From Waddliaceae bacterium (GTDB lineage: Bacteria > Chlamydiota > Chlamydiia > Chlamydiales > SLFE01): DNA of 64,000 nt. The stretch lies in contig CAVYRW010000004.1 in the NCBI GenBank assembly GCA_963771045.1, positions 1,056,001 to 1,120,000 on the forward strand, in the 5' to 3' direction. The notes beneath the pieces were generated by a model. That model was not told the origin of the DNA. It did not search any database and saw nothing but the letters and a program-made list of their open reading frames with translations. The position numbers and the translations under genes are program-made. Each line of letters starts with the position of its first letter. Position 1 is the first letter of the stretch. Below are positions 8,377-41,209 of the stretch, one piece after another.

Positions 8377-8774
8377 ACCGTTTTCTGATTCTCCACATAT
8401 TGCTTAATCACACTTAGAGGAGCACCCCCTACCGTCGAAACGAAATAAGAATTTGTCCAGAGGGTGGGAAGACGAGAACGAAGGTGAGGAAAACTTTGTC
8501 TTAAAATTCTTGAGCTTTTCCCTTTGATTTCCTTAATCAACTTATGGATGCCATATTGAGGATCAACCTCAACGAGAAGATGCACATGATCCGGCATTAA
8601 TTCCATAGCAAGTATTTCGCTTCTCCTTAATTGGCAAACTTCCTCGATGATTGCCCTGAGTTCCTTTTGGACAAAATCGTTTAGTACATTACGCCTATAT
8701 TTTGGACACCACACAACGTGGTACTTGCATGAGTACACCACATTGTGATTAGATTTGTATTTAGAAATCGTCAT
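8373..8774 (-). CDS. tnpA: IS200/IS605 Y1 (HUH) transposase
   Basis: YHVVWCPKYRR, HUH motif DHVHLL, LWTNSYF, catalytic Tyr in KQYVENQ. Confidence 0.96.
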   Translation of the reverse strand: MTISKYKSNHNVVYSCKYHVVWCPKYRRNVLNDFVQKELRAIIEEVCQLRRSEILAMELMPDHVHLLVEVDPQYGIHKLIKEIKGKSSRILRQSFPHLRSRLPTLWTNSYFVSTVGGAPLSVIKQYVENQKTV

Positions 8775-9783
8775 GCTAACGCATTATATGGCGACAACTA
8801 ATATAATTCAAGTCGCTCCTTAACCCCATAACTAATTCCAGGGGATTGCGTCGCGATTTCGTTCAAAGATATCACCGCGCAGTTCGACGCTCTTTCTGAA
8901 AGGCAATTCTACGGCGATGTTTAACTAAACCGCAGTATAAATTTCACTTTTGACCCGTGATTGTGACCTAATCTGAGGCTGGGCGCTACAGATGGAGGTT
9001 AGATTTCGAAAATTTTGACGAGAGGCATGTCTTAAGACATGCCGGAGGAGAAATTTATCGAAAGATGACCTTCAGCTGTAGATGATTGGCCTTATTGGTT
9101 ATTATGATTTTTTTTAAAAATGGAGGAAATTATGATCAATCAAGTTATTACTATTTACTGCGTTTGCGATGAATTCACTCGTTGTTTTGGAATCATTGAC
9201 GATCCACAGTGCAAAATGAGCACAAGCGAAATTATGACCTTTGCTTTGGCTATCGCTTTAATGTATGGTTGCGATTACAAGAAAACCCGTCTTGTTTGCA
9301 AATATTTTTGTTTTTTCAAGAAAATACTTAGTCACAGTCAATTGGTAAGAAGAATACACAAAATTCCTAGGTGTGTATGGTTCATGGTATTTTATGCGCT
9401 GCAAATACTACTAAGAAATTCTAAGAATTTATCATTTATCGTGGACAGTTTTCCTGTAAAGGCATATGAGAATCATAAAAGTTTCCGAGCTCGGATTTTT
9501 TCAGATAAGGAATATCATGGATATACCGTTTCTAAAAAGCAGTATTTTTTTGGAATAGAAGTTCATATGGTAATTGATACCGATGGCGTTCCCATTGAAT
9601 TCTCTTTGACTCCAGGAAATTGTTCTGACATCAAAGCTTTTAAAAATATGGATTTAGAACTTCCAAAGGGGTCGATAATTTTTGGAGATCGAGCTTATAT
9701 AAACTACGAATTAGAAGACAGATTATTGAAAATACAAGGAATAAAATTGATTCCAAAAAGGCGTCAAGATCTTAAAAGATAAC

Positions 9784-24036: not shown

Positions 24037-24660
24037 ATGTTGATACACAATGCTAAAGTTCGCCTGTCCCCGGGAAGGGGAATTGGCCTCTTTGCTACAG
24101 AAGATATACCTACGGGGACAGTCATCTGGTGTCCTTGCGATAAATGCGAATATTATGAAAAAGGGGTATTGGGTCACTGCTCCGATGAAATGGCTTTCAG
24201 GCTTGAAGAACATGGGTATTATCTTGTAAATGGCGATATTCTGATTCCCTGCCAAAATGCCTGTTACATGAATCACTCCTGCGAGGCGAATTGTTTGGAT
24301 TTCGGACTGGATTTTGGTCTTGCTGTCAAGCCGATAAAAAAAGACGAGGAAATTTTTTGCGATTATCGCAACTGGCAAAATGACCCTGATTGGGAATTTA
24401 ACTGCTGCTGTGGAACTGCCAGGTGTCAAAAAAAAATCAGTCCAAGGCATGGTGAAGCTCGTGATTTGCAGCAAGAATGGATGAGAAAACTTAATGGAGG
24501 ACTGAAGCAAATGGCATCAGTCCGGCAGGGACTTTTCGAAACATTGATAAGGTGCAGCCACCACTTCCCCCGGTTGATCCGCAACATCGGCCTGTTCGAT
24601 CACAAAACTGCTGTTACCGTTAGAGCGCCGCATTTCATCAAGGAAGGGGATAAGCTTTGA
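24037..24660 (+). CDS. SET domain protein-lysine methyltransferase with post-SET motif
   Basis: GxG motif GRGIGLFA, NHSCEANC, EEIFCDY and post-SET CCCGTARC. Confidence 0.9.
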   Translation: MLIHNAKVRLSPGRGIGLFATEDIPTGTVIWCPCDKCEYYEKGVLGHCSDEMAFRLEEHGYYLVNGDILIPCQNACYMNHSCEANCLDFGLDFGLAVKPIKKDEEIFCDYRNWQNDPDWEFNCCCGTARCQKKISPRHGEARDLQQEWMRKLNGGLKQMASVRQGLFETLIRCSHHFPRLIRNIGLFDHKTAVTVRAPHFIKEGDKL

Positions 24661-25761
24661 TACAAATCCTTCCTCTAGCGAATCTTTGTCTGTATTGACG
24701 GCATAAGAGAAAAAGATATGCTTTTCGTTTTCATTACGTGCGGGGAAATAGAGAATTCCGGCCTTAAAGCCCCATTGCTCTCCAACGGCCTGCCAAAAGC
24801 TGCACCCTTCCTGAAAACAAAGCTGCCAGATTCCCAGACTATAGCGGTACTCTTTAGCTTTAACAAGAGGGATTTTGTTATCAAAAGGATGAACGGGAAA
24901 ACAATGGCGTCGGCAATCATTTAGAAAATTTGTCTGAAAGATAAGGTTTCGAAATCCGATGAGAAGATCCTCAGGGGTACTTATCAGAGCTCCTGCCGAC
25001 CATTCGTCCCAACTGTCATCAACTAGGTCTGAGATATCAAGATAGTTTGAAACCGGAGATGTCGCAAACAAAGACACATTCAGCAAATTTATGGCGGCAT
25101 AGGCTCTGGCGATTTTTTCATTAAGGCTAATGTAAACCGAGCTTTTCGGCATTATCAGAGGTTCGGTCACATTATCCCTAACTGCCTCGATAAAGGGTTG
25201 TCCTGACAGCTCTTCGACAACGATGCCGAGTATTAAATAATTGAGGTTGGAATATTGGAAATCTTGACTCTCGTTATACTCACTATTGGCCAAAGCGAAT
25301 TCCACAAATGCCCAAGGCAAGATTGGTTTTTTTTTAAGTGAGGTGAACATTCGGAGGTAGGGAAATGTTTCCTGGAAATCGGGAAGGCCGGAAGTGTGGG
25401 TCAGAAGCTGCAATACGGTGATGTCTTTAAGGGGCGGGTATTTTTTGCATAATGTATCGAATCTTCCGCCCAATTCGTTTAATTTTGTTTGAATGGGTAA
25501 ATTTTTTCTTTGAAGAAGGTCAAAGACCAGAAAACCGGTGAATGTTTTGATCACACTGCCGCATTTGAACAAGGTGTCCGGCGTTATCTTTTCCTTGTTT
25601 CTGAGGTCGGCATAGCCTGCACAAAGTATTTCAGGGGGCTTGTCATTGACGGCGATAGCGGCGCAAACGCCCGGGGCATCAATACGCAATGTGAAATCGG
25701 CTGCCCGGCAAAGCAGCGCAGCCGATAAAAAGCATAAAATAAAGGGCAATCTTATTTTCAC
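24517..25761 (-). CDS. Secreted serine hydrolase (beta-lactamase-like / S12 peptidase family)
   Basis: GTG start and signal peptide; SxxK (GSVIK), LLTHTSGL, YSN, AGALIST. Last gene of the operon. Confidence 0.88.
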   Translation of the reverse strand: MKIRLPFILCFLSAALLCRAADFTLRIDAPGVCAAIAVNDKPPEILCAGYADLRNKEKITPDTLFKCGSVIKTFTGFLVFDLLQRKNLPIQTKLNELGGRFDTLCKKYPPLKDITVLQLLTHTSGLPDFQETFPYLRMFTSLKKKPILPWAFVEFALANSEYNESQDFQYSNLNYLILGIVVEELSGQPFIEAVRDNVTEPLIMPKSSVYISLNEKIARAYAAINLLNVSLFATSPVSNYLDISDLVDDSWDEWSAGALISTPEDLLIGFRNLIFQTNFLNDCRRHCFPVHPFDNKIPLVKAKEYRYSLGIWQLCFQEGCSFWQAVGEQWGFKAGILYFPARNENEKHIFFSYAVNTDKDSLEEGFVSKLIPFLDEMRRSNGNSSFVIEQADVADQPGEVVAAPYQCFEKSLPD

Positions 25762-25762
25762 C

Positions 25763-26995
25763 TTATGCGATAGCTCTCATTTTAAGCAGCTCAGTCAACA
25801 GTTTTTCACAAAGAGCTGTCTCGCTAAATGATGACAATACAACCTCTTCGCTTTTATTGAGTTTATCGATAAGCTCGATAAGTTCCTGATGGTTGTCCAT
25901 GCATTCACAATAGCCGTTTGCAGAAACAAAAAGCTGTCCGCTAGGCACTAGATCCCACATGATCGGAGCAGCCGAGCATTTTTTATAGGCACAGGAGGAT
26001 TCCAAACTGGCTTCGGCTTTTGGAGGAAGCCCCGCCACAGCGCAAGCTGTCTGGTGCATGATCCGCTGCTGATTCAGTTTGTCTTGGAAATCGAGGTTTT
26101 TGACAGCTTGGAAACAGTCATTGAGCTCTATAGACCAGCATTCCGAGGCGACTGTTTTATTCTCCTTGCCGAACTGATCCTTGATGGCCTCTTCAATCAC
26201 ATCCAATGTGACAGATTTTGCCCAGCCATCCATGTATACGGAGATATTGACGCACATGCAAAGCTCAGGAGAGCTTCCGACGTGCCAGTACAGTCCGGGG
26301 CAATAGGTAGCCTGGCCGGGGGCTGCGATAAAGGTTCCTCGATGTTCTTTTCTCCAGTTGATATCGCCTGTGCTTAGGTATTCTTCGGACCCTGTTGCAA
26401 GCTGGCCGATAGGGTTGTCTTCGGGCTTGGCAGCATGGGGAGGCCAGATGTAAAAATACTTATTACCGGAGATCGTAAAGTGGAAATTGTGGCAAGAGGC
26501 TCTGTGGATGCTTCCGGGTGTCTTAACATAGCGGCCTAAAAACATTTCCACATCGATGGATCCTTTGGGGATGCCGGTCTGCTGAATAAACGGGTATAAA
26601 AAGTGTTGTACGCGCTCTGTGAGGACCGGAGAGTATTGGGTAATCTGGTTGATAAAGATCATGAAGTCTTTATTTCCAGTCATCTGATCCAATCTGGAAA
26701 CAAAGCTTTCGAGGTTGGCATCTTCAGGGGAAGGGAGGTGCCTTTTGACCTGATGCAGCATTTGTTTAGAATCGACAAACATTTTCAGATCGGCGAACTT
26801 TCCTTTGTTTCGGTATTTTTCCGAAGCTTCAACCACGATATCAAAAATTTCTTGTTCCGTTGCCAGCGGGACCTGAAATTGCATCAGCTTCCCTTTTTGA
26901 CACCAAGTGGCATCGACAAATTCTTTCCAGCTCGATTCGTCAAGGCAGGGTCCTTCGATTTGATTCTTTTTTTCTGATTCAATAGCGCAAACCAT
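25763..26995 (-). CDS. JmjC/cupin-fold Fe(II)/2-oxoglutarate oxygenase-like protein
   Basis: FLGRY..TP..IH, GNKYFYIWP, PGQATYCPGLYWH cupin pattern with a winged-helix-like C-terminus; the metal motif reads HRA. Confidence 0.75.
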   Translation of the reverse strand: MVCAIESEKKNQIEGPCLDESSWKEFVDATWCQKGKLMQFQVPLATEQEIFDIVVEASEKYRNKGKFADLKMFVDSKQMLHQVKRHLPSPEDANLESFVSRLDQMTGNKDFMIFINQITQYSPVLTERVQHFLYPFIQQTGIPKGSIDVEMFLGRYVKTPGSIHRASCHNFHFTISGNKYFYIWPPHAAKPEDNPIGQLATGSEEYLSTGDINWRKEHRGTFIAAPGQATYCPGLYWHVGSSPELCMCVNISVYMDGWAKSVTLDVIEEAIKDQFGKENKTVASECWSIELNDCFQAVKNLDFQDKLNQQRIMHQTACAVAGLPPKAEASLESSCAYKKCSAAPIMWDLVPSGQLFVSANGYCECMDNHQELIELIDKLNKSEEVVLSSFSETALCEKLLTELLKMRAIA

Positions 26996-27004
26996 GTGTT
27001 TCTC

Positions 27005-28894
27005 CTATTTGTATAATGATATTTTTGTATTCTCGGAAATCCATGAGAGGCTGTTTTCCCACGATAGATCGGGAAAACCGAGCCGATCCCTTAATTGCTT
27101 AGAAAACTCGGGCATAATTGGGTAAAGACCTATGGCAAATTGTTTCAAAGCGAGCAGTTCCAACGAGACTTGGGTCGGGAAGGTCTCCGGATCGAGGGGG
27201 CTTACCTGATTGAGGTAATCGGCCAGCTGTTCCATAAATCCGGCGAGCGCCTCTGCGGCCTGCTTATTTGAGAATGACGCTGGAGTATAGCAGCTTCGAA
27301 TTTGTTTTCTAAAGAAAACCAATTCATTAAAGAATTGTCTGTCCCTTTCACTCCAGAGATAAGGTGAAGAAGCGGCGCCTCCCCAGGTTTCAAGATGTTT
27401 TTCTATGGATTTCAACGTCTCTTGCCATTTTCCGCATACGACCGTCTCAACAAATTCTTCGTATTGATTGACCGAAAAATTCGTGCGGCTCTGTTCCGGA
27501 CTTTGCAAAGAGAGATAAAACCGCGTCGGTTCTACAGTCTCTTCATTGATATGCGACAGCAGCCAGATGGCATGCTTGCGGCTTGTGGAGAATTTTTCGT
27601 TATCGAGTAAAAAGAATTCGTTTGAAATCAATCCAACTGGAAGCGCGCATGTGTTTAACGCCATAAAAATCGCGGGAAATAAAAAGCAGTTAAAAAAAGC
27701 ATTGTCCTTGCCGAAACATTGGATCAGTTTTTTATCCGGGTAGTGGGTTTCAGAGAAAAAGTGGTGGGCAAGACCCATTTCGAACCAAACAGAGATGACC
27801 TGACCGCTGTCTGCCGGCACAGGAACTCCCCAATCAAAGGGGAAGGAGACCGGATAATCAGGTAGAGGTTTTCTTAAGATCGATTGACACCAATTTCTAA
27901 GAGAGCTGTTCATTGGGCACTCCTGCAGAAATGTTTCGATTTTTTCTCTAAAAGGCTCAAGAGGAAAAAAGTATCTTTCTGTTTCAATCTTTTGAATGTC
28001 TCCCGAAGTCACTGTCGATTGAGGAGCGTCTATCTGCTGGCAATCATGGACATAGGCACACTCTTCGCAGAGATTGCCCCTGCAGCGAGCATGGCAATAG
28101 GGGCAAAAACCGGACAGGAAAGCTTCAAAAAGAAAAATGCCTTCTGAATCAATAAAACCCTCTTCTTTTCTTTTAACGAGTGTGCCCGATTGGCAGAGGG
28201 AGAGAAATCTCTTCTGAATTTGTTCTTGATAGCCTAGTATCGCATCCGGTTTTGTAAAACGGTCCAATTCGACTTTGCTTTGGGCAAGAGCCTCTTCGAT
28301 ACGTCTTCCGAATTGCTTAGCCGTTTCTTTGTTTGAGATCTTAAGATCGCGAGCCTTTTGAGCGGTATAGCTTTGATGGTCGTCTTGTCCTGTTTGATGG
28401 ACGGCATGGGTACCTTCAAGAAGCATCCCTCTTCTTAAGATATCAGCCCTCAAATAGGGGCCGCTTAAATGGCCAAGATGAAGATCGCCGTTTGGAGTTG
28501 GGGGAGTCGATGTAATGACATAGTCAAAAGCCTGCTGTTTTGTAGCGCCCTTTTCAAACCAGTTCATATCTTCCCACCAAAGGCTTAAGAAAACTAGGGA
28601 CGAATCATTTGCTGTGTTTGTCACAGAATGCTCTTCAAAGGGAAGGAATTGCATGATTGCGTTTGAGTTAAACGGAAGCCTTTTTTTACCGGATCTTACC
28701 TCGCCCTTGCCTTGAAGGTGGATAAATATCTCGCAGTCATGGTGGATATGGGCAGAGGTCGTCTCGCCTGGCTGCAGGACGAGATACGCGGCTTTCATCG
28801 GGGGACTTGGTTTCTCCAGCCCGAATTCAATCTTTTGAAACCCGGCGTTGAAAAGCCGCTTACATTCTTTAGGGCAAAGTTTTATTTCCTGCAT
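27005..28894 (-). CDS. Cupin / methionyl-tRNA-synthetase-like fusion (hydrazine synthetase, Spb40/Tri28/PyrN type)
   Basis: N-terminal cupin HIHHDCE...PFEEH...LSLWW. MetRS-like HIGH motif PTPNGDLHLGH, zinc knuckle CPYC...CEEC, KMSKS variant KFSTS. Clustered with a Lys N6-hydroxylase and an FAD oxidase. Confidence 0.9.
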   Translation of the reverse strand: MQEIKLCPKECKRLFNAGFQKIEFGLEKPSPPMKAAYLVLQPGETTSAHIHHDCEIFIHLQGKGEVRSGKKRLPFNSNAIMQFLPFEEHSVTNTANDSSLVFLSLWWEDMNWFEKGATKQQAFDYVITSTPPTPNGDLHLGHLSGPYLRADILRRGMLLEGTHAVHQTGQDDHQSYTAQKARDLKISNKETAKQFGRRIEEALAQSKVELDRFTKPDAILGYQEQIQKRFLSLCQSGTLVKRKEEGFIDSEGIFLFEAFLSGFCPYCHARCRGNLCEECAYVHDCQQIDAPQSTVTSGDIQKIETERYFFPLEPFREKIETFLQECPMNSSLRNWCQSILRKPLPDYPVSFPFDWGVPVPADSGQVISVWFEMGLAHHFFSETHYPDKKLIQCFGKDNAFFNCFLFPAIFMALNTCALPVGLISNEFFLLDNEKFSTSRKHAIWLLSHINEETVEPTRFYLSLQSPEQSRTNFSVNQYEEFVETVVCGKWQETLKSIEKHLETWGGAASSPYLWSERDRQFFNELVFFRKQIRSCYTPASFSNKQAAEALAGFMEQLADYLNQVSPLDPETFPTQVSLELLALKQFAIGLYPIMPEFSKQLRDRLGFPDLSWENSLSWISENTKISLYK

Positions 28895-29895
28895 AAAGCT
28901 ACCTGCTGGGTAAAATGGTTTTTTATCCGGTTGGCAAGGGCCGGAGCCAGACGGTATCCGGACCCCGACCCTGCTGTGACGGCTATGCGCCGGCCGGAGT
29001 CATCGACCTGAAAAACAGCGGGAGTAAAATCCTTGCTGTAGGCGTCGCAAAAGACGCGTCCTCCCATGACATTTGCCGCCATTTTTTTGCAATAGCGCGA
29101 CAAAATTGCTCGTCCCGATTGGAGAATTTTTTCGTTAAGGAAAAATTGTTCGGTTGGAAGGCAGTCCCATTGGCAGAGGGTAAAGCTGAATTTCCATTGA
29201 TTTGATTGGTAATCGGGAAGGAGGAAGGCGTCATCATCAAAGAAATAATAAAGAGGTGTCGTTTCATTTAATCGGATATCCGAGGCAATATGCAAACAGG
29301 CGATTTTTTTTGTCCGGATCCCTTTTGTTTTTTGTGTAAGCCAAGGGCCTGTCGCTTCGATGACTCTTTCACTGTTGATAACAGATTGCAAAGAGTTGAA
29401 GATATAGCCGTTTTCACAGGATTCGACATTAAAAACCGGCGTGCCTTCAAAAATTTGGACGCCCTGTTTTTTCAGCCAGAGAGCCAGCTCTTTGCATGTC
29501 GCGTAGACATCGCCGGAATAGGCTGCCGCACCTTTCAAATGAAGGCGATTGAACTTGCCTTCTATGGGAGCGTCCAACTCTGCTAAGACAGCTTTTTTTG
29601 CCTCTTCAAGACTATTGGAGGAAACGACAACGCTTAAAGGATGATGCCTGATATCGAGTTCGGGAACAATTGACTTGAGTTTTTTCCACTGCTCGATGCT
29701 TTCTAAAGTCAATCGCCTCTTTTCCTCTGTGCGTCCGATCGGGAAGTCGACGCCGAGTGAATATAGACTGGCGCCCGTACCGACTAAAGATTTTTCAAAA
29801 ATCGCTATAGTCCAATCGGGCCTTTCGGCTTTAATCATTGCAGCGGAAGTCAACCCAATGATGCCGCCGCCGATAACAGAAAGATCCAACTTCAT
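28882..29895 (-). CDS. FAD-dependent oxidoreductase (D-amino acid oxidase-like; Spb39/Tri27 type)
   Basis: VIGGGIIG, GTGASLYS.G, ATGPW, FCDAYS, AGSGSGYRLAPALA. Confidence 0.88.
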   Translation of the reverse strand: MKLDLSVIGGGIIGLTSAAMIKAERPDWTIAIFEKSLVGTGASLYSLGVDFPIGRTEEKRRLTLESIEQWKKLKSIVPELDIRHHPLSVVVSSNSLEEAKKAVLAELDAPIEGKFNRLHLKGAAAYSGDVYATCKELALWLKKQGVQIFEGTPVFNVESCENGYIFNSLQSVINSERVIEATGPWLTQKTKGIRTKKIACLHIASDIRLNETTPLYYFFDDDAFLLPDYQSNQWKFSFTLCQWDCLPTEQFFLNEKILQSGRAILSRYCKKMAANVMGGRVFCDAYSKDFTPAVFQVDDSGRRIAVTAGSGSGYRLAPALANRIKNHFTQQVALCRK

Positions 29896-29910
29896 AATCT
29901 ACCTATTTGT

Positions 29911-31200
29911 TTACACAATCGGCTCGAGTACGGGGTGCTGATGCGCCCTTTCTTTTGAGCTGCTGTGAAGAGGATAAATTTCTTGTCCGCATAAGCTATT
30001 GACAATCATAGCCGACCGCCATGCCATCAAACTTAAATTGGCATCGGCAACACCTCGACAATGCCGCGATCCATTCTGGATATAGATTTTGGCTTTGTCG
30101 GTATAATCCCATTGAACGGAGTAATCCTCGTTAGTCTGTAAATGGCCGTCTTCTGTAGATGAAATATATTCTTGCAGAGATTTTAAATAAGTAGGAAACT
30201 CCCAGCGGTATCCTGTACTCAGGATAACATAATCAACAAGGCGGGAAGACTGGTTTTTTTCAAGGATATTGTAATAAGAAACATTCCATTGATCTTCTTC
30301 TTTTTCGATTTTGTTGACTTGGGTATTGGTATGGATTTCGAGTCCCTTCCATCCATCACGGAATTTTAACTGATACCACCTCTGATAGAGGTCTCTCAGA
30401 AGTTCGTCGTTGATTCCGTCGCTTGCCAATTTATGTTGATTGAGCAGGATTTTTTTGACGTCTCTTTCCTTGAGGAAAAATTGCTCGACATAATTGGGAG
30501 TGAACCAATCATTGGCAAACGGGGAGTCATCAAGGGGGGCCAGATGGCTTCTGCGGGTGAGCCAGCAGAGACTCTCCGGGAGGGCATCGTTTGATGACAA
30601 GATGTCATTGACGATCTCAGCCCCTGTCTGGCCTCCACCTACAACAATTGCTCTTCGCCCTTTTAAATCGGGCTTGATCTCAAGAAAGCGGCTGGCATGG
30701 AACATGGTTTTTTGCGAAGACGGCAGGTGAAATGATGGAATGTTTGGGGCAAGTCCGGTGCCAATTACAATATGCCGCGATTTCACAAATTTATCCTGAT
30801 AAAAAATATGAAAATAAGGCTCGTGAAACTCCACTTTCTTTACCTTTGAGTCAAAACATATATTATCCACCGAATTGCAGACCCATTGTAGATACTGTTC
30901 AAACTCCCACCTCCTGGGGGTTTCAAACTTGGCATTAAGATGGGTATAAAAGCGGTTGTGGCGCTTGAGGAAATTCAAAAAACTATAAGGACTCATCGGA
31001 TCGACCAAAGTGACAAGGTCTTTCAAATAGGAAACTTGTAAATTGGAATTGGGAAAGAGAAGCCCCGGATGCCAGGAAAAAGTTTCTTTGGCCTCTAAAA
31101 ACAGCGAATTAACCTGTTTAACAGGATGCAAAAGGGCCGCAAGACTTAAATTGAAGGGGCCGACGCCTATACCTACCAGATCATAAAGTTTTTGACCCAT
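29911..31200 (-). CDS. L-lysine N6-monooxygenase (IucD/SidA family)
   Basis: GIGVGPFNLSLAAL, FSWHPG, LQVSYLKDLVT, VVGGGQTGAE, STGY, HCRGVADANLSLMAWRS. Confidence 0.95.
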   Translation of the reverse strand: MGQKLYDLVGIGVGPFNLSLAALLHPVKQVNSLFLEAKETFSWHPGLLFPNSNLQVSYLKDLVTLVDPMSPYSFLNFLKRHNRFYTHLNAKFETPRRWEFEQYLQWVCNSVDNICFDSKVKKVEFHEPYFHIFYQDKFVKSRHIVIGTGLAPNIPSFHLPSSQKTMFHASRFLEIKPDLKGRRAIVVGGGQTGAEIVNDILSSNDALPESLCWLTRRSHLAPLDDSPFANDWFTPNYVEQFFLKERDVKKILLNQHKLASDGINDELLRDLYQRWYQLKFRDGWKGLEIHTNTQVNKIEKEEDQWNVSYYNILEKNQSSRLVDYVILSTGYRWEFPTYLKSLQEYISSTEDGHLQTNEDYSVQWDYTDKAKIYIQNGSRHCRGVADANLSLMAWRSAMIVNSLCGQEIYPLHSSSKERAHQHPVLEPIV

Positions 31201-31202
31201 AA

Positions 31203-32264
31203 TCAGCTTCTCCTTTCAAGCAAAGGGGGATAACGATGAATTTTTCCGTTGTAATCTTCTACAACATACGATTCATGCTTATCGTCTGTTGAGAGTTCCT
31301 TCAAATAGTTGGGATTGATAGGAACCTTGCCAAAACCGCCCGGAAGATCCAATGCATAAGTTGGCTGGCAAAGGCCCGAAAGTCTGCCCCTTATTTTTTT
31401 TAGCAATTGCTGCCCTTCTTCAATAGTTGTCCTGAAATGAGACGTCCCCTTGGCATAGTCGCCATGGTGAAGGTAATAAGGTTTGATCCTGTTTTTGACG
31501 AGCGCCCTAAACAGGTTTTCCAGCTTAACGGGGTCATCATTGATTCCTTTGAGAAGGACGCTTTGGCTGAGCATAGGAATACCTGATTCTACTATCCTGG
31601 CGATTGCCTTTTTGGACTTGTCGATAAACTCTTTTGCATGGTTGGTGTGGAGTATAATATAAAGAGCTTTATCGGTTTTCAATGCTTCTAGCATCTCATC
31701 AGAGATGCGGTCAGAGTCGACTATCGGAACGCGGGTGTGTATTCTGATCACTTCCACATGATCAATTGACGATAAACGGGTGATGATTTGCTTGATCATG
31801 CTCGGAGGCATAAAGAGAGGGTCCCCGCCGGTAAGAATGACTTCCCAGATTTCCTCAGTGTTTTGAATATACTCGAAAGCGGCGTCCAGTTCCTTTCGGT
31901 TCAATCCCGATTTGGCAGATCCTACCTTTTCTCTCCTGAAACAGAAGCGGCAATAGACAGGACATACAGTCATAGGAAGAAAGAGGCAGCGGTCAGGATA
32001 CCTGTGCACAATCCCTTTGACGGGACTGCGTGCGTTATCCCCGATGGGATCGGCCAGTTCTTCTTGTTTTACAGATAACTCTTTGGCATTGGGGACAAAT
32101 TGAGCGGATATAGGATCATCGTCATTATTGATATCGATCAATCCTGCCATCTGATCAGTAATTGATAAGGAAAAGCGATCGACAACTTGCTTGAGTTCGC
32201 TGACTTTTTCTTCTGGAATAATTCCTAAGTCATGCAGCTCATCAACTTTCTTAATTTTACCCAT
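31203..32264 (-). CDS. KamA-family radical SAM protein (lysine 2,3-aminomutase-like)
   Basis: VHRYPDR, CxxxCxxC (CPVYCRFC), TGGDP, QSVLLKGIND, PYYLH, PLP-lysine motif PGGFGK. Confidence 0.93.
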   Translation of the reverse strand: MGKIKKVDELHDLGIIPEEKVSELKQVVDRFSLSITDQMAGLIDINNDDDPISAQFVPNAKELSVKQEELADPIGDNARSPVKGIVHRYPDRCLFLPMTVCPVYCRFCFRREKVGSAKSGLNRKELDAAFEYIQNTEEIWEVILTGGDPLFMPPSMIKQIITRLSSIDHVEVIRIHTRVPIVDSDRISDEMLEALKTDKALYIILHTNHAKEFIDKSKKAIARIVESGIPMLSQSVLLKGINDDPVKLENLFRALVKNRIKPYYLHHGDYAKGTSHFRTTIEEGQQLLKKIRGRLSGLCQPTYALDLPGGFGKVPINPNYLKELSTDDKHESYVVEDYNGKIHRYPPLLERRS

Positions 32265-32288
32265 AATTCTTCCCCCATTTTTTAATTG

Positions 32289-33593
32289 TCATTGGTGCAA
32301 TACCGCCCCTTCCATTTTTAGGAAACGTTTTTCGATATCAAAAGCCTCTTCCAAAAGGTTGGAAAAAATGATATATCGTATTTTATTGTCAAGATGAATG
32401 GTATTCGAATGAATAAGAACACCTGTTTTTGTTTCGGGATTGAACGCGATATTTTCATTTTCGATATATTCTAGAACACTCTCAAAGGTTATATCGCCGT
32501 TAGCAACCGCGGCATCCTGCACCCAGCAGGTATGCGGATAATAGTCAGGATCAACCAATCTTCTGGCTAGATAATCAATGAATGTTCCTGCAGTGCGCCT
32601 AAAATTGGACTCGGTCGCAAAAAACTGGCCTTGATCATCCAGGCAGCAGTCGACATCGCAAATTCCTCTAAATCCAAGACTGTGCAGATAATTGCCAAAT
32701 CTTAAGCCGACATCGGAAAGCCTATTCTGCTGGTTATGGTCAATTGTATTTGGCGGCGTGACCATACCGCTGTAAGCGGCGCCTGGACATCTTTGGTCGC
32801 AGATATATAAAATATGCGGCCCCTGCTCTGTTACCTCGATTTCAACACTTGGCAACGCGGTAAAATTAACGAACTGCTCAACGATAAAACGGAATGGCTG
32901 GCTTGAGTAGCATGACAAGTTCTTCTCGAGCAATGCAAGAACAGTCGTGTTTTTAATATCCTCCTTGCCGATGATGACATGGCCGTAGCCGTTTGAACTT
33001 CTGTCGAATTTAATGATCACTTTGTCTGAGGAACAAAGCAGTTTTTCAACATTGGCAGCAAGATCCTGCAGACCGGAACAGAAACATCCTTTGACAGTCG
33101 GAATGCCAAGTTTATGCATCAACTTGCGGAAACCGGATTTTGTGTTGATGTCATAAAAGGCTTCCATGAGTTCGCGGGAAGGAAATTCCTTGTATCCCCA
33201 AATCGGAGATCCAACTTCCCATGCCAATGAAAGCGTTGGACGGTCCGAAGCAAAGGGGAGTAGAGAGGCATCCCGGTGATGTTTGACATAATCTCCCATC
33301 TTCTCGAAGGTATCGTCCATGCGGACGCGGTGGGCGAGAAGATCGGTCAATTCCCCTTTAGGAGTCAAGGTTTTGACTTTATCGGGGTTGATTCCAATTG
33401 TTTTGGCCACATACTTTTTAAAAACAGGATCGATAGGCACAGGTGTCACGATAAGGTCGTTTTCGTTTGCAATCCACATCTTTCTCGGCGTGATAGCCGA
33501 CATCGCTTTGGCATAGCGCATTGTCGGTATCTCAATCATCAGCTCGTTAACGACGTTGGCAAATATTATCCACGGTTTTCGATTGGTATTCAT
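32289..33593 (-). CDS. preATP-grasp / PGM1-like ATP-grasp peptide ligase
   Basis: IIFANV, NTKSGFR, IIKFDRSSNGYG, IVEQFV, GFRGICDVD, ESNFR ATP-grasp motifs. Confidence 0.85.
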   Translation of the reverse strand: MNTNRKPWIIFANVVNELMIEIPTMRYAKAMSAITPRKMWIANENDLIVTPVPIDPVFKKYVAKTIGINPDKVKTLTPKGELTDLLAHRVRMDDTFEKMGDYVKHHRDASLLPFASDRPTLSLAWEVGSPIWGYKEFPSRELMEAFYDINTKSGFRKLMHKLGIPTVKGCFCSGLQDLAANVEKLLCSSDKVIIKFDRSSNGYGHVIIGKEDIKNTTVLALLEKNLSCYSSQPFRFIVEQFVNFTALPSVEIEVTEQGPHILYICDQRCPGAAYSGMVTPPNTIDHNQQNRLSDVGLRFGNYLHSLGFRGICDVDCCLDDQGQFFATESNFRRTAGTFIDYLARRLVDPDYYPHTCWVQDAAVANGDITFESVLEYIENENIAFNPETKTGVLIHSNTIHLDNKIRYIIFSNLLEEAFDIEKRFLKMEGAVLHQ

Positions 33594-33602
33594 GATTTTC
33601 TC

Positions 33603-34343
33603 CTACTTTTTAAATCCGCCGTAAACAGCATGCCCTGCGCTTGCCCAAAAGACTTCGATAGAAGCAAAGCCCGCCTCTTCCAGCCACTTGAGCTGGTCAT
33701 AAAGGCTCGATGGTTTGTCAATGGGATCATTTTCAGCATTCGGATCGGAATAGTAATTCCACTCGGTTCTTTTAAATGCCTCGTAAGCAGATTCGCTGCC
33801 GAAAATTTCCAGCGAACGTTTTTGAGTTTCCTCATCCCAGTTATCTGCGAAAATCTTTTTTGATTCCGGAGAGTTAGGGTACATGAGATCGGCGATAATC
33901 AATGCCCCTCCGGGTTCTAACTGGCCATAGAGATCTTTAAAGAGGGCCTTTTTCTGCGCCGCATCTAAATGATGGACCGCCAGTGAAGAAACAAAAGCAT
34001 GGACAGGCTGGGGGAATGTTCTCCACTCCATTTCGGCAAGGTCGAATTGTTTGACTTCGATCCTATCGGAATACTCTTTGTTTTTTCTTTTAGTTTCGTC
34101 TAGCATTTTTTGGCTTAGATCCATTCCCCATACTGTTGCCTTTGGAATGTTTTCTAAAAGCGCTTTGCAAGTATCTCCGGAGCCGCAGCAAAGCTCGACA
34201 ATAATGCCTTTTTTTTCCATTTTGGGAATGGCTTTTATGAGAATTTCAATTTGCCTTTCTTTTTGCGGAACAAAGCAATCGCCATATTTGATAAAGATTT
34301 CACTCTCATCTTCAGTCCATTTGTTTTCCGTTGTTTCGTTCAT
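33603..34343 (-). CDS. Class I SAM-dependent methyltransferase
   Basis: Motif I VELCCGSG, GMDLSQKML, SSLAVHHL, LEPGGALIIAD. GGAGGT RBS before the ATG at 34343. Confidence 0.93.
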   Translation of the reverse strand: MNETTENKWTEDESEIFIKYGDCFVPQKERQIEILIKAIPKMEKKGIIVELCCGSGDTCKALLENIPKATVWGMDLSQKMLDETKRKNKEYSDRIEVKQFDLAEMEWRTFPQPVHAFVSSLAVHHLDAAQKKALFKDLYGQLEPGGALIIADLMYPNSPESKKIFADNWDEETQKRSLEIFGSESAYEAFKRTEWNYYSDPNAENDPIDKPSSLYDQLKWLEEAGFASIEVFWASAGHAVYGGFKK

Positions 34344-34719: not shown

Positions 34720-34917
34720 ATGAGCAAACGAAATTGTCCAAAATGCGAGTCGAAAGCGATCAAAAAAAATGGCTTTACAAGACACGGAAAACAAAATCAC
34801 CGCTGCCTTGATTGCGGGCGTCAATTTTCCTTGGAACCGAGCGATGAAGACTTTCAGGAATTTCTAAATCCGCAAATTCACGAGGAAACTTACATCAGCT
34901 GTAAAATCGTCGATTAA
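34720..34917 (+). pseudogene. IS1-type InsA zinc-ribbon fragment
   Basis: CPKC...KKNG...GKQNHRCLDCGRQF is homologous to the N-terminus of the IS1 transposase at 43709, then diverges. No TIRs seen. Confidence 0.7.
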
Positions 34918-37900
34918 TTATATGGCTGCATTTCCCAGGGAAAGGGTTGCGTTGTCGGTTTTGGAATTGGCTTTTGACCTAGCGTGCCGCCTAGAAGATC
35001 CATGAGTCCGCCGACAATCACCCCTTGAGGCCCTCCACGAAGCTGAGCGATAAACGCTGCAATCTTAGTCGAGGCTTTGTTTGAATTAATGCTCGGATCA
35101 GACAGGCTTCCCTTCATTGTCAATTGAAGATAATAATCTTTCGGAACGCCTTTCAACCCAAATGCCTGCCTCAGCGTCATTCCTCCAAGGCCGATCTTCA
35201 TATTGATATTATCATCGTAAAAATTCACCCTGCCCCAGGCAGCAACGGGATAGCGGCCAGCAACAAGCATGTCCACGCGGTTGATATCGGCCACGCCATT
35301 GTGATAGCTGAGATATAGGGGAGTGAACCATACGGAGATTAAATTCATGTCGGTCGAATACTTTAAAATGCTGAGGATCTGAGCAATTTGAAAGTCGTTT
35401 TTAAAGTACATCTTGCCTAAGTCGACTCTCATAGCGCCAACGGAAAATTGATAGGGGGCTTGAGACCACAACGGGTAGGAAAATCCATTTTGGTCAATGG
35501 TAACGCGTATCGGTTCTTCAGAACTATAGGCAGAATTCAAAAAGGGGAGCAGTTCATCCAGGATTGAATCCTGCAGTGTAGGCGTTATTGAAAACTCGGC
35601 GCTTAAAGGGGATTTGAGAGTCAGTATGCCCCGTGATAAGTAGCCGTCAAGCGACAATTTTCCGGTAGTTCCATTGATGGCTAATTGAATCGGTCCAGTC
35701 ATCTCCGACAAACTAACATTCAACTGGGCATTCACCCTGTGGCCGATTAGCGCTTTGACTTGATTAAGTACACTCTCATCCAGACATAAAAAGTTTGATA
35801 AAAGCAAAGCGGGAGCTTGGTGGGCTTCAGCCTGAACTTCCATAGAAGCTCCATGCCTGTTAAATGACCCGTCAGAATGAAAAATATCTTTAATGACAGA
35901 ACTAAAAGAAAATGGAGCTCTTCATTTTGCTCATTATAAATGCTGCCTCCGGCATCAAATTCAATCCCGATGGAATCAGATAAGTCGCTTGAGGCTGCGC
36001 GGGCGGCGACACCGTCAATGAATACCATGTCGTCTGTCATCGTGTCGAGGACATAAATACTTGCGGTATTCAGTTCGATAGCAATCGACGAATGGGAAGG
36101 GTTTATTAAAGGGATGACAAGATTCGAAATGTCTGCTTTTACCGAAGTTGATTGTTGAAGTTGCAGCTGATCGATAAGTCCGGTATTTTGACATAGTAAA
36201 TGTTTTCTGATTGCGGAAAATCTCTCAGGAGTCATTTCCCAATGTATAACAACAGGACGACTCGGGTCTTCGAGAGTCAACTGCTGGTCAGCCTTTAATG
36301 ATCCGGCAATGTCAAATTGATCCCCGTTGACCGAGAATATCACATGCCCTTCGCTGCCATCCAAATCGTCATAAACTTTGACAGCGGCATCAAGAGACGG
36401 GCCGATTAATCCATCAAGCTCGTCAATTTCTGTAAATGCGCTTATAACGACAACTGGAAATGCCGTTATCGCCGTTTCCGCATTCACTTTCCACTCTTCT
36501 ATATTACCGGTCCAGCCTGAGACCCGAACATGCCCTTCAAGCTTCCCTTTTTGTTCCATGTTTCGGTTGGCTGTGACGGCAGCAATGGTAAATGTTAACT
36601 CGTCATTTTTCGCATTTGCCGACCAGGGAATGAATATTTTTCTCAGAGATGCCATAGCATCCCCCTGATCTTCTCCTACCGATATTTCGTCGATCAAAAG
36701 CCGCCCTTTAGACGATATTTTGGACAATGAAAAATCGCGAACATCAAGTTTTACCTCATCGAGCAAAAGCTGCATTATGGCTGGAGAGCAGAGATGGTAA
36801 TCGTGCTGTTTTTGATCCTGAATCTCGGATAAAAGCTGAGGGGTTAGCATGTAGTTGATATATCCGGATAGGGCTAATTCGAAGGGGTTATCTGTTTTTC
36901 CACTGCCTGCCAGGTTTAAAACAAGCTGGCCATCTTCTGCGGCTAGGTCAAACTTCTCCACATGGGGGATAAAATCATCCGAGAGGTTGAGCTTAGAAGA
37001 CAATTTGAAGCGGAGTTCGTCTCCCAAAGATCTTGATAGGGGATTTTCCTGGTCAAATCGGTTGAGCCTTCCGATTAAAGAGAGCTGCAGGTGTTCTAAA
37101 GACAGGGCGTCAAGTGTTAATAAACCGTTCGTAAAATGGCATTGATTCACCCAGGGAAGATGAGAAAATTCGAGATCGCGAACCGAGATTGTGGATTGAA
37201 GGGCAATATCTTTAGGGGTGATTTTATCTGAAAGGTTTATGTTAAGGTGGTTGACTTGAATCGTTAAGGGAAGGGTTTTAGGCAGTATCTCGCTAAGGCC
37301 TGCATGGGGAGTATAATCAATGGCAATATTGATCGGCTCGACGAGTGCAATGTGAAAATCGTCCCACTCAAAAACGGCCTTCTGAATTTTTGCGGTGCTG
37401 GATGATAATTTCAATAAACCGTATTGTTCTTGATTTTCACGAACAAGGCGCAAAGACCCGTCAATATTGGAACCGAAAATTGATTTTGCCCATGTTTTGA
37501 ATCTTTTGTCTTGCGACAAGATAATTGAGAAGCGAGGCCCTAAGCCGTTTGCCTTCTAAAAGTAGATCATAATTCCTGTCTTCCGTTAGCGATAACCATC
37601 CTCGCACGGCTGCATCACTATCGCCGCCCTTATCGGTAATAATACCGGAGAGGTCAAAATCCAGTTTCTTAAGGTTGTCCGACAGCAAGACGATTCCTTC
37701 TGCATTTGTCAAGCTGACCCCGTTTTGCAAATCCATCCGAACAGGATTCAATTGGAATTTATAACCTTTTCCTGTCAGCAGGGAAATTTCCAGAGGGGTA
37801 TCGAAAGTCATGAAACCTTGCTTCTGCAATTTTTGTGCAAGGCTGTGCGGCATTGTATAAACGATCTTTCCTTCTTTGGAGAATACAGGCCCATTGTTTG

Positions 37901-38393
37901 TCATGCTGATATAGATATCGGCGTGTCCATTTTCCGACGAGGCGTCAATATGAATGATCTCATTATCCTGATCTACAGAAAGGTTAATGACTGGACCGGC
38001 AATTTCGGAGACGGTCAGAGATAAAGGAGTGAACGTCTCTTTGAATGTTTTTGCGGCCAAATGAGGCAGGGAAGCAGAGAGATTTTTCGTTTCAAATTTG
38101 TCTATCCACTCATTTGTGAACAAAAGACGGTAAATAGAGGAATTCACAGCAAGAGTGTCAAATTGAATATCGGATTCATCGCCGCCAGTCCAGTGAAAAC
38201 GGTTGGCTCGCTGAGGCCCAAACCAGCTGAGACGTACACGATCAACTTGAACCTTCCCTCCAAAAGTGTGCTCCAGATAAGGAATCAACAGATAATCCTT
38301 AGCCGGCCTTGTGGAAAGGATGAACGGTAGGGAGATGACAAATCCGATAAAAAATAAAACCGTATAGATGATTATTCGTAGACTTTTTGCCAT
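34914..38393 (-). pseudogene. Large chlamydial-type envelope protein (AsmA/TamB-like) split by two frameshifts into ORFs 38393-37461, 37519-35747 and 35843-34914
   Basis: N-terminal TM anchor plus LSWFGPQ, long beta-rich body, C-terminal WFTPL...RVDMLV...PFPWE. The three overlapping ORFs join into about 1160 codons. Confidence 0.7.
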
Positions 38394-38677: not shown

Positions 38678-41209
38678 ATGAACAAGATAAACACATTGAA
38701 CAATTCTAAAAATTTGTCTAGAAATCATCAATCTTTTTCGGGTAATCCGGACAAATTTACCGCAGTCATTCGTAGAATGAATGAAGGAGAACTTGCGGAA
38801 ACCAATTGCGTTTGGATGAGTGCAAAAGATATGCAGCGATATTTTCCGGAGCAAAACGAAGATAATGCTGCCTTTGCGAGAATTGCCAACCGCGTTTACC
38901 GCATTGCCGAAAAATCGTGGATAAAACCGGGTGAAATCGGATTGAATCCGGTTCAATTCGAAGAAGTGTCTGCCGTTATCAATAAAGATGATACTGTCCT
39001 TATAACACCCTATAGGCAGAACCCTGCCTGCCGCCGGGACTTAACGGAAGCAAAATTCATCATATCGCCGCAAAGTCTGGATGATACCGTATCAATTAGT
39101 CAAAACATCCTCGACTTGGGCGAGATTAAAAACTACTTTCATCAGCATTATGAGGGGCATTTTCTTAAAGAAGGACAGGTTCTTCACTGCAATTTTAACA
39201 ACCGAGAATTTTTCGCCACATTTCATTCAGGCGAGGCGCATCAAACTCCTGAAAACAAACTTTTTTTTAGTACAATTATACCAACGACTGAATTATTTTT
39301 TGAAACTGTTGAAACCTCTCCTTACATTTTAAGCGAAAAGACAAATACTATTGAACAGCCGACATTTAAATTCGATGTCTTGATAACGGGACTCGATAAT
39401 TATCCCGATACCACGCGCCCTCTTATCTATAATGTGGAAAAGTTTGAGGAGAAGGTTAGGCTTGCGTTGCAAAACGAGTGGCTTGTCCCCGGCATGTTTG
39501 TCGAATACTCCATTGCAGCAGGGGTTAATATCAAAGTTATTTTAAAAGAAACCCTATTGCCTAAAAAAAACGTCCAGCTTGCAAGAAAAGGAGCTGTCTA
39601 TACAAAAGCTTACCGCCTAACCCCGGAGGCCAAACTCGAATTTATTTCCGATAATGCAGATGTATGCGGCGTCAGAGGGGAGCCTCTTAAGCCGAAGCGG
39701 GTCACATTTCGAATCTGCATGATTGACTCTCTTCCCGGTTTAGATTCCATGCAGGAAGATATTAGCAATTGGATCAACGTATCCGAAGTGGGTCAAAAAA
39801 TCAGGGAATCGATAGACCTCTTTTCGGCAAACACGAAATTTTTTGTCGAACATGAGGGGTATCTTCTGAATTTGGAAATCTTTGCTATCGATAATGAAGA
39901 TCTCGTTAAGCACGATTCCGTCAATATGAAGCATTGGGAATTGTCTGATGATACGCGGATCTTTCTCAATTTAAAAAACGGCATCGACCTCAATCTCATT
40001 CCCGATACGAAAACACATTCGCTGAAAAAAATGACTGTGTATATTTCGACTAAAAAAACCCAGAAAAACATTGAACTTACCGAAGTGGATTTGGATGCCT
40101 TAAAGCAGGCAATTAAAGACTATCTTCCCATAGAGAGGTGCCTCAATCAGAAATTTACAGTTGATTTAGGGGGTGATCTTCTCCTCGACGTCAAGGTTAA
40201 AAATATGGCATTCAAAACAAGCAGATATAACGGAACGATTTATCCCCACCTTGGAAAAACAACATCCGACACTGAATTGGCTATTGAATACGATAACTAT
40301 CAAATCTGGATGAGCCACAAGCCGAATATCATAAGATTTAAAAACGGCGATGCCCGCCAAACTCTAGAAGAAGCCGGTTTGACAGGGCTGCCTGATGAAA
40401 TCGTCGAAGCTTTCGAACTCATTGCATACCCTTTGGGAGAATTAAGAGAATTAGCAAAAAAAATGAAAATCAAGTCACCCAATGGACTACTTCTCTATGG
40501 TGCTCCGGGAACGGGAAAAACCACATTTGCCAACGCTCTTGGAAAACTTCTGGATGTGACCAAGGACAATATCGTACAAGTCAAGCATGCCAACCTGCTT
40601 AGCAAGTGGGTCGGAGAGACTGAAAAAAATGTTAAAGCACTATTCGATAAAGCCCATAATAATAAAGATCAAAGGTTCATTGTCATCTTTGATGAGATCG
40701 AATCTCTTTGCGAAAAACGATCGAGAACGACAAGCTCCCCAAGAGCCAGCCTGGTAAACACTTTGCTTGAAGAAATGAGCTCTGCGCAGGATCTCGACAA
40801 TCTCATTGTTATCGGAACGACCAACCAGCTAGAGAGGATCGACGAGGCCTTCTTAAGACCGGGACGTTTTAGTGAAAAAATCGAATTTCCTCTGCCGGAT
40901 GCAGCGGGAAGGAAAAAAATCCTGGAATACTATATCAAGGACTTGCAAGAAGAAGAGGTCATCGAAGATGATATCGACCTTGACCGATTTGCGGCTGCCG
41001 CAAAAGACTTCTCGGGAGACCACTTAAAAGGGCTTGTTAAGAAAGCATCGAAATTGCGTCTGAGAAAGCTCGCTTCACTTAAACTCACAAAGGAGCAGGC
41101 CGAAAAACATCCTGATCGAAAGATCACAAACGCCGATTTTCTGGAGGCATTCGATAGCGTCAAGCCGCTAGTAGCAGGAAACGCTCCACCTGTCCACATG
41201 TATGTTTAA
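38678..41209 (+). CDS. NSF/Cdc48-like AAA+ ATPase with a single AAA module; paralogue of 16329-19595
   Basis: GAPGTGKT, SKWVGETE pore loop, VIFDEIE, DEAFLRPGR. The N-terminus (TNCVW..RIANRVY..W.K.G..GL) is shared with the paralogue; GGAGGT RBS. Confidence 0.87.
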   Translation: MNKINTLNNSKNLSRNHQSFSGNPDKFTAVIRRMNEGELAETNCVWMSAKDMQRYFPEQNEDNAAFARIANRVYRIAEKSWIKPGEIGLNPVQFEEVSAVINKDDTVLITPYRQNPACRRDLTEAKFIISPQSLDDTVSISQNILDLGEIKNYFHQHYEGHFLKEGQVLHCNFNNREFFATFHSGEAHQTPENKLFFSTIIPTTELFFETVETSPYILSEKTNTIEQPTFKFDVLITGLDNYPDTTRPLIYNVEKFEEKVRLALQNEWLVPGMFVEYSIAAGVNIKVILKETLLPKKNVQLARKGAVYTKAYRLTPEAKLEFISDNADVCGVRGEPLKPKRVTFRICMIDSLPGLDSMQEDISNWINVSEVGQKIRESIDLFSANTKFFVEHEGYLLNLEIFAIDNEDLVKHDSVNMKHWELSDDTRIFLNLKNGIDLNLIPDTKTHSLKKMTVYISTKKTQKNIELTEVDLDALKQAIKDYLPIERCLNQKFTVDLGGDLLLDVKVKNMAFKTSRYNGTIYPHLGKTTSDTELAIEYDNYQIWMSHKPNIIRFKNGDARQTLEEAGLTGLPDEIVEAFELIAYPLGELRELAKKMKIKSPNGLLLYGAPGTGKTTFANALGKLLDVTKDNIVQVKHANLLSKWVGETEKNVKALFDKAHNNKDQRFIVIFDEIESLCEKRSRTTSSPRASLVNTLLEEMSSAQDLDNLIVIGTTNQLERIDEAFLRPGRFSEKIEFPLPDAAGRKKILEYYIKDLQEEEVIEDDIDLDRFAAAAKDFSGDHLKGLVKKASKLRLRKLASLKLTKEQAEKHPDRKITNADFLEAFDSVKPLVAGNAPPVHMYV

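Follow-up and report, generated by a model that had tools for sequence, protein, structure and literature searches.

Within a window of 64,000 nucleotides from the genome assembly of a Waddliaceae bacterium (GCA_963771045.1, contig CAVYRW010000004.1, positions 1,056,001 to 1,120,000 of the forward strand), we find an intact gene cluster of the negamycin family. It likely makes a beta-lysyl N-methyl-hydrazinoacetate without carrier proteins, with a three-gene hydrazine cassette replacing the enzyme NegJ and a JmjC enzyme predicted to chlorinate rather than hydroxylate the lysyl chain; this reading as a whole, chlorination included, has about an even chance. The gene content, the six genes with homologs in the negamycin locus of Kitasatospora purpeofusca, the exchange of the N-N bond-forming module and the His-x-Ala motif of the JmjC enzyme are plain facts of the sequence. 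The cluster comprises eight co-directional genes (24517-34343) and a convergent gene encoding a SET-domain protein (24037-24660). Seven genes had been delimited in a preliminary description of this DNA (25763..34343); all of them are indeed found, intact and running in one direction on the minus strand, and Pfam and NCBIfam confirm the families assigned to them. The limits given there were too narrow as they omit a serine hydrolase and the SET gene, both of which find a match in the K. purpeofusca locus. The statement that no non-ribosomal peptide synthetase (NRPS) or carrier protein is present stands, no such domain being detected by Pfam and NCBIfam among the 15 proteins scanned.

The comparison with K. 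purpeofusca is based on a profile of the ATP-grasp ligase built from 38 relatives. It yielded 31 loci from genomes and 46 from metagenomes, among which is the locus (L021) of K. purpeofusca NRRL B-1817, described as a negamycin producer with NegJ (10.1101/2025.05.27.656397). It consists of ten co-directional genes encoding a serine hydrolase, an aminomutase, a cupin, a methyltransferase, the ligase, a SET protein, a FemAB-like protein, an alpha/beta hydrolase, a major facilitator superfamily (MFS) transporter and a protein of 689 amino acids. Gene content and aminomutase position agree with the published neg span of ten genes with kamA2 second from one end and a KinJ homolog at the other (10.1101/2025.07.31.667836); gene letters were assigned by position. 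The tenth gene, whose 689-residue product has no family or PDB match, has Arg-Met, His(+44) and Arg(+54) spaced as stated for KinJ (10.1101/2025.05.27.656397). Six of the ten genes match the window cluster, namely those of the hydrolase (27% identity), the aminomutase (52%), the JmjC enzyme (25-28%), the methyltransferase (36-37%), the ligase (32%) and the SET protein (40%), and each match is the best in both directions within this genome and the L021 locus. Both ligases fall into one clade of 23 rows with an SH-aLRT support of 100, while the resemblance of the window ligase to solved structures is weak (PDB 8ynd, E 6e-19; PGM1, E 7e-12).

That this association of genes is beyond chance is indicated by the difference between loci with near and with distant ligases. 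KamA accompanies 24, the methyltransferase 21, the SET protein 20 and the JmjC enzyme 12 of the 33 near-ligase loci, a sample which includes kin and duplicates (L020-22, L019/28, L048/49/54, L027/56) and several short contigs. In the 44 distant-ligase loci the corresponding numbers are 4, 0, 1 and 0. The negamycin-type scaffold, which the preliminary description had proposed from enzyme classes, is hence supported by homology to a characterised locus, and the comparison suggested there yields six matched genes. As far as sequence can test, nothing points to a synthetase using an amino acid other than glycine, to a KamA acting on another substrate or to a ligase that fails to join beta-lysine to a hydrazino acid, the findings which that description had named as speaking against it. 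The mapping of genes onto the product is, however, not one-to-one, since two further conserved genes, SET and serine hydrolase, lack an assigned step.

The neg cluster of K. purpeofusca (neg2, negA-J) and the window cluster have in common the six homologous genes and the absence of NRPS. They differ in gene order and in host, the latter being a chlamydia, and where the neg cluster has NegJ and a His-x-Glu JmjC enzyme, the window cluster harbours a hydrazine cassette, no detectable NegJ and a His-x-Ala JmjC enzyme. As predicted from its genes, the cluster works like the negamycin pathway but falls outside the definition of the neg cluster, since NegJ and the His-x-Glu triad both fail.

In K. 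purpeofusca hydrazinoacetate is made from nitrite and glycine via the heme enzyme NegJ (10.1101/2025.05.27.656397; 10.1101/2025.07.31.667836). In the window cluster a cassette of the Spb38/39/40 type takes the place of NegJ, and no tblastn match to the protein in the NegJ position was obtained at E<=1 in this genome, which is 90.6% complete. In this respect the preliminary description, which had tied the cassette to negamycin, needs correction: the cassette plays no part in the established route to negamycin, as deletion of spb38-40-like genes in the producer is reported to have no effect (10.1101/2025.07.31.667836). As in the known systems of this type (s56-p1; AzsLMN of azaserine; NngKLM; Tri28), N-hydroxylase, FAD oxidase and cupin-MetRS didomain lie side by side. 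In contrast to these, the window cluster has no carrier protein or succinylation genes and feeds an ATP-grasp ligase and an aminomutase.

Among the 33 near-ligase loci ten are NegJ-type and six have the full three-gene cassette, none has both, and the remainder, many of them short, show neither within the fetched DNA. FAD oxidase homologs adjoin the synthetase in all six cassette loci. NegJ-type and cassette-type loci are interleaved on a quickly built tree of 29 ligases, from which near duplicates, fragments, most of the distant loci and, for a stop in the excised sequence, L019 were omitted. The cassette-type locus of Streptomyces ossamyceticus (L018) has the K. purpeofusca pair as its sister (support 98), within a clade that also holds the NegJ-type L023, and the cassette-type L013 pairs with the NegJ-type L015 (support 98); the window ligase has no well-supported close sister. 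Interchangeability of the KinJ and AzaEFG modules has been raised as a possibility (10.1101/2025.05.27.656397). The cassette-type loci L018, L012 and L013 resemble the window cluster in joining the neg core to a hydrazine cassette, and L012 and L013 also share its synthetase pocket code (see below). The JmjC protein of L012 is shorter and of the His-x-Glu type, whereas L013 and L018 show no JmjC match within the fetched DNA. We met no publication on the products of these three loci. L018 (6259-15436) combines a cassette of pocket code TPDQWMNH with genes 61-76% identical to four K. purpeofusca genes, without a JmjC or SET match, which makes S. ossamyceticus a culturable candidate for deoxynegamycin formation via the cassette route. 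Neg-type clusters with either N-N module also occur outside Actinomycetota, in Aquimarina sp. RZ0 (L012), Verminephrobacter (L013), Mangrovicoccus (L015) and Dictyobacter (L017); the preprint describes conservation in seven Actinomycetota only.

The synthetase consists of a cupin and a MetRS-like domain, retains the cupin His/Glu motif, and is encoded beside the N-hydroxylase and the FAD oxidase. Its best PDB match is PyrN-C (E 5e-81), compared to E 3e-44 for a true MetRS; a translational MetRS paralog was dismissed on these grounds. A separate housekeeping MetRS is encoded at C4:829106. Substrate recognition in this family has been ascribed to eight pocket positions, which read TPDQWMNH in the glycine-using AzsN (PMC12376268). 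In the window enzyme these are T130, P131, D171, Q174, W370, M373, N398 and N402 (TPDQWMNN), equal to the glycine code in seven of eight residues, with Asn for His in the eighth. TPDQWMNH is found in 47 and TPDQWMNN in 10 of the best 120 of 1350 matches, and the former count indicates that the register of the pocket is sound. The six cassette-type neg loci all share the stem TPDQWMN and end in H, N or F (two each). Four TPDQWMNN synthetases have a longest contig of the same length as that of a ligase match, one such pair being confirmed by L012. Specificity for glycine is, on the evidence of this code, likely. The best solved relatives of the N-hydroxylase are diamine and lysine N-hydroxylases; a siderophore hydroxylase was rejected as no siderophore synthetase occurs among the scanned proteins. 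The known oxidases cleave the C-N bond either on the lysine side (Spb39) or on the C-alpha side (Apy10) (PMC11705231), and the FAD oxidase of the window has no close solved relative. A search for related loci with the synthetase alone confirmed none of 31 candidates.

The motif of the JmjC enzyme reads His164-Arg-Ala166...His238, the codon of Ala166 being located at 26498-26500. It aligns with the product of the third L021 gene over 292 residues (28%, E 3e-27), which has His-Arg-Glu, and all 12 JmjC homologs from the fetched related loci are likewise His-x-Glu. In a weak match to JMJD7, A166 is aligned with Asp. A HMMER library search, of whose 928 matches the best 150 including the query were considered, gave the triads HDH (102), HEH (27), HGH (16) and HAH (5), while a word-indexed search returned the query only. 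The three nearest of the 149 listed relatives (45, 39 and 36% identical) are all H-R-A. On a quick tree of 56 rows, with proteins outside 300-520 residues and lower-ranked Asp/Glu rows omitted, the window JmjC forms a six-row clade (support 100) with these three relatives and two His-x-Asp proteins. Origin of Ala166 by sequencing error or decay was rejected; the nearest relatives also have Ala, and the codon is two base changes away from Glu. His164 and His238 are invariant in 125 aligned proteins and the 2-oxoglutarate-binding K179 is nearly so. The residues which are invariant in the Glu-type enzymes (E150, Y156, C168, K179, E204, Y206) are all kept. Retention of this set, E150 and E204 included, suggests the same diamine substrate; as E150 and E204 are also invariant in Glu-type members they do not represent compensating changes.

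The predicted model of the enzyme (pLDDT 92.8) finds its best folds in YcfD/NO66, over the full architecture (Z 18.6, root-mean-square deviation 6.0, 345 aligned residues); in the ESM Atlas only generic JmjC clusters were matched. According to a halogenase atlas every reported radical halogenase is of the 2His-1Gly/Ala type, and this rule led to two newly proven enzymes (PMC13489965); the same 2His rule is given for SyrB2-type enzymes (PMC2938197). With SyrB2, WelO5, BesD and AspX the window JmjC shares the 2His-1Ala metal motif within a double-stranded beta-helix, and with AspX the adjoining ATP-grasp ligase. Unlike these types, it possesses the full YcfD/NO66 ribosomal-oxygenase architecture. 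Given its motif, chlorination by this enzyme is predicted as the rather probable activity, C5 being most simply the site. The preliminary description had regarded it as the C5-modifying enzyme; with the iron-binding carboxylate absent (Ala166), hydroxylation at C5 should not be taken for granted.

One Ala-type relative of the JmjC enzyme has a longest contig of the same length (19,635) as that of a TPDQWMNN synthetase, and one Asp-type relative agrees in this length (50,719) with both a synthetase and a ligase, which may be taken as indirect signs of sister clusters. Among viral contigs searched with an alignment of the Ala clade, none of 121 was confirmed. Short exact pieces are present in one soil sequencing run, which may be the source sample, with the Ala codon outside them; no RNA run was among the sequencing runs listed. 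Sixteen His-x-Gly and one further His-x-Ala family members, mostly outside the window clade (P0185, P0200, P0202, P0210, P0217, P0221, P0225-P0227, P0249, P0259, P0271, P0273, P0291, P0304, P0305, P0261), are other halogenase candidates by their motif.

The aminomutase scores 469.8 bits with TIGR03822 (cut-off 396.25), as does the L021 gene above this cut-off, and its CxxxCxxC motif and C-terminal region of the pyridoxal phosphate-binding lysine align with PDB entry 2a5h. With TIGR03821, the model for EpmB, it reaches 236.7 bits, below the cut-off of 369.3, and it is not encoded beside efp or epmA. The latter two are adjacent at G000:C4:2004060-2005515, about 0.9 Mb from the cluster, with no epmB beside them, and the cluster aminomutase is the only KamA-like gene in this assembly. 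A KamA-like match occurs in 35 of 40 relatives, mostly about 35% identical to the cluster enzyme; three genomes (G249, G401, G040) have a single KamA match, of the cluster type (93, 73 and 55%), plus epmA. As the only KamA-like gene alongside efp and epmA, also in relatives with the cluster type, the cluster aminomutase has probably replaced EpmB. The (R)-beta-lysine needed by the cluster likely comes from it, as probably does that for elongation factor P (EF-P). The substrate of EpmA is (R)-beta-lysine and negamycin has the 3R configuration, which would favour negamycin over the 3-epi series.

From what is known of the families, a route can be proposed in which the N-hydroxylase would convert lysine to N6-hydroxylysine, the synthetase would couple this to glycine and bring about the N-N rearrangement, and the FAD oxidase would release hydrazinoacetate. 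Methylation of the hydrazine nitrogen would fall to the class I methyltransferase or perhaps to the SET protein. The aminomutase would provide beta-lysine from lysine, and the ligase would form the beta-lysyl hydrazide bond under consumption of ATP. The JmjC enzyme, judged by its motif, would transfer chloride, most simply at C5, to give 5-chloro-5-deoxynegamycin. A 5-chloro-6-amino unit could close to a ring. That the product is a chlorinated deoxynegamycin appears to us about equally probable as that it is not.

Several points weigh against a chlorinated negamycin-type product. The cluster is known here from its genes, and the identity to the known locus is low for the ligase (32%) and the JmjC enzyme (25-28%). 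Single L021 queries gave no match in the genome at E<=1e-3 for the FemAB-like protein, the alpha/beta hydrolase and the MFS transporter, genes which are also missing from most near loci, and the operon contains no exporter. A substitute metal ligand may be present in the JmjC site. The halogenase atlas lists JmjC proteins as predictions only (PMC13489965), we found no biochemically proven halogenase of the JmjC/ROX fold in the literature, and for the counterpart in K. purpeofusca, too, hydroxylation is no more than a proposal (10.1101/2025.05.27.656397). As to the synthetase, the changed eighth pocket position corresponds to Arg425 of PyrN, which is critical for side-chain recognition (10.1101/2025.08.22.671884), and our literature search found no characterised enzyme with the code TPDQWMNN.

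The main rival reading, if on balance the less probable one, is that the same pathway runs without chlorination, the His-x-Ala enzyme either still hydroxylating, which would give negamycin, or having no turnover, which would give deoxynegamycin. The Ala clade does include two His-x-Asp members, and enzymes with two His ligands can hydroxylate in part. Furthermore, L018, L013, L046, L048 and L054 show core and cassette with no JmjC match within the fetched loci, which makes it likely that the scaffold can form in its absence. On the other hand, Ala is common to four proteins which are only 33-45% identical to the window JmjC and whose active-site region is well kept, which argues for selection rather than decay; a codon two changes from Glu also speaks against an unchlorinated product. 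More doubtful is a beta-lysyl hydrazide with another amino acid such as Ala or Ser on the hydrazine side, chlorinated or not. The pocket code belongs to a distinct sub-type (10 of the best 120 homologs) with no characterised member found, and mixed Ser/Gly and Ala/Gly enzymes exist (10.1101/2025.08.22.671884). Yet the agreement with the glycine code in seven of eight positions, the TPDQWMN stem common to all six cassette-type neg loci, with H, N or F at its end, and the fact that the NegJ route supplies a glycine hydrazine to the same ligase family (10.1101/2025.05.27.656397) favour glycine.

Least probable, to the point of being improbable outright, is that no negamycin-type compound is formed, either because the aminomutase is kept only for EF-P while the ligase acts on another acyl donor or because the cluster is inactive. 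In its favour are the presence of efp and epmA next to no other KamA-like gene and the retention of the aminomutase under purifying selection (dN/dS 0.06) in the same-genus genome G249 despite loss of most of the cluster. It is opposed by the occurrence of KamA beside the ligase in 24 of the 33 near loci, from several phyla, with an enzyme of the same TIGR03822 type as that of K. purpeofusca, and by the intactness of all nine open reading frames (ORFs) here, in an assembly in which a neighbouring gene is split. We retain a chlorinated beta-lysyl N-methyl-hydrazinoacetate as the reading to be preferred.

The host genome (2.57 Mb, 5 contigs) encodes five TLC nucleotide transporters above cut-off and an OmcB-family match which is weak and under cut-off, and it exactly matches a Chlamydiales 16S primer; the host is read as an environmental chlamydia. 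Within its phylum the cluster is rare. The ligase profile matched 2 of 400 genomes, this one and G139, whose protein is 22% identical and lies on a 5 kb contig without other genes of the neg type. The JmjC profile matched 1 of 400, and no other intact copy of the cluster was found among the 400 genomes scored. A second full-length match of the synthetase was obtained in one (G202) of 299 other genomes of the phylum. The other matches listed start past the cupin at about 24-30% identity and are for this reason read as ordinary MetRS. The G202 locus (L011, G202:C2:1027000-1046999, 6176-13581) has a synthetase of code GPDQWMNY, next to which lie an AMP-binding enzyme, one peptidase-like and two methyltransferase-like ORFs, with no N-hydroxylase, ligase, aminomutase or JmjC match within 20 kb. 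In view of its other code and the lack of ligase, aminomutase and JmjC, it was set aside as an unrelated pathway.

In codon usage and in GC content at third codon positions the nine genes do not stand out from the rest of the genome and thus give no sign of recent transfer. In the same-genus genome G249 (L104 = G249:C5:56000-75000, locus 10141-12412) the same site is seen in stepwise deletion. The methyltransferase (86%) and the aminomutase (93%) are intact, the ligase is cut after 39 residues and the hydroxylase after about 29, followed by SET fragments and then acs; two transposase-like ORFs lie upstream. The pairwise dN/dS values of the surviving genes, 0.06 for the aminomutase and 0.11 for the methyltransferase, cover both lineages and are similar to those of acs and ribD. 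These remnants at the same site imply that the cluster predates the split between the two lineages and limit it to the stretch from methyltransferase to SET.

The genes are compiled in Table 1. The gaps between the ORFs of the seven originally noted genes, all intact, are 9, 24, 2, 15, -13 and 9 bp, and the serine hydrolase ORF starts 1 bp past the JmjC stop. The SET and hydrolase ORFs share 144 bp at their 3' ends (24517-24660); since homologs retain the SET end, it may be the hydrolase that is extended at its tail. The longest methyltransferase ORF starts at 34358, with a GGAGGT just upstream of the ATG that gives the end 34343, which is likely the true start. Promoter and terminator counts (24 and 9, compared to shuffle means of 16.8 and 12.9) were uninformative.

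Table 1. Genes of the cluster in window coordinates, with domain assignments and counterparts in the K. purpeofusca locus (L021).
Product	Position	Strand	Domains and counterpart
Class I S-adenosylmethionine (SAM) methyltransferase	33603..34343	-	Pfam PF13649; 36-37% to L021:9239-9976 (locus gene 4)
PGM1-type ATP-grasp ligase	32289..33593	-	PF18604 + PF18105; 32% over 423-426 residues to L021:9977-11227, E 1e-65
Lysine 2,3-aminomutase (KamA-like), TIGR03822 type	31203..32264	-	Radical SAM + LAM_C; 52% to L021 gene
Flavin amine N-hydroxylase, Spb38 type	29911..31200	-	PF13434, E 2e-103 (Lys/Orn N-oxygenase)
FAD oxidase (DAO-type), Spb39 position	28882..29895	-	PF01266
Cupin-MetRS-like hydrazine synthetase	27005..28894	-	Pfam Cupin_2 + MetRS-like
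YcfD/ROX-fold JmjC Fe/2-oxoglutarate enzyme	25763..26995	-	Cupin_8; locus gene 3
Beta-lactamase-family serine hydrolase, hydrophobic N-terminus	24517..25761	-	PF00144; 27% to L021:5557-6741 (locus gene 1)
SET-domain protein	24037..24660	+	PF00856; 40% to L021:11224-11793 (locus gene 6)

The AMP-binding gene next door encodes acetyl-CoA synthetase (acs), 94% identical in the same-genus genome. On the minus strand at 34914-38393, three overlapping ORFs without Pfam match correspond to a single ORF of 1159 residues in G249, and the sequencing-run contig has one extra base near 35909; this split is likely due to assembly indels or marks a young pseudogene. Two related large AAA ATPases, both conserved in G249, flank the region (16329-19595, 1088 residues; 38678-41209, 843 residues). 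An MFS transporter (46256-47488) and a resistance-nodulation-division efflux set (31-5550) are possible but unlinked exporters in the window. Dense remains of insertion sequences (IS200/IS605 tnpA + tnpB, IS1, Mutator, IS66, DDE) occupy 7333-11259 and 43709-63716, and an RHS-repeat protein of 1590 residues is encoded at 54521-59293.

Negamycin is a Gram-negative-active ribosome antibiotic and a lead for stop-codon readthrough, the development of which is limited by supply and synthesis (10.1101/2025.07.31.667836; PMC12797225). Nitrite, a heme enzyme and ferredoxins of the host are required for the known route, which functioned in only one of the three heterologous hosts tried (10.1101/2025.07.31.667836), whereas relatives of the hydrazine cassette work in E. 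coli (PMC12376268; 10.1101/2025.08.22.671884); a one-operon route from lysine and glycine would be easier to transfer. With the loci found, the interchangeability of KinJ and AzaEFG suggested in the literature can be tested directly. In a translation assay hydrogen at C5 costs 2-4-fold and fluorine 1.7-fold (PMC12797225), and a natural C5-chloro analogue, if true, would be new chemistry at a position tolerant of change. Likewise, a JmjC-fold amino-acid halogenase, if true, would be a new biocatalyst. In the literature we found no description of the combination of cassette and His-x-Ala variant, though the figures of the primary NegJ paper may already mention cassette-type clusters. Tentatively, and with less confidence than in its parts, we consider that an intracellular chlamydia might make 5-chloro-5-deoxynegamycin or a ring-closed product by means of a YcfD/ROX-fold radical halogenase, the negamycin family being modular across phyla with two N-N modules and switchable C5 chemistry. 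The cluster further suggests that a translation inhibitor serves a chlamydial symbiont as a weapon, for itself or for its host.

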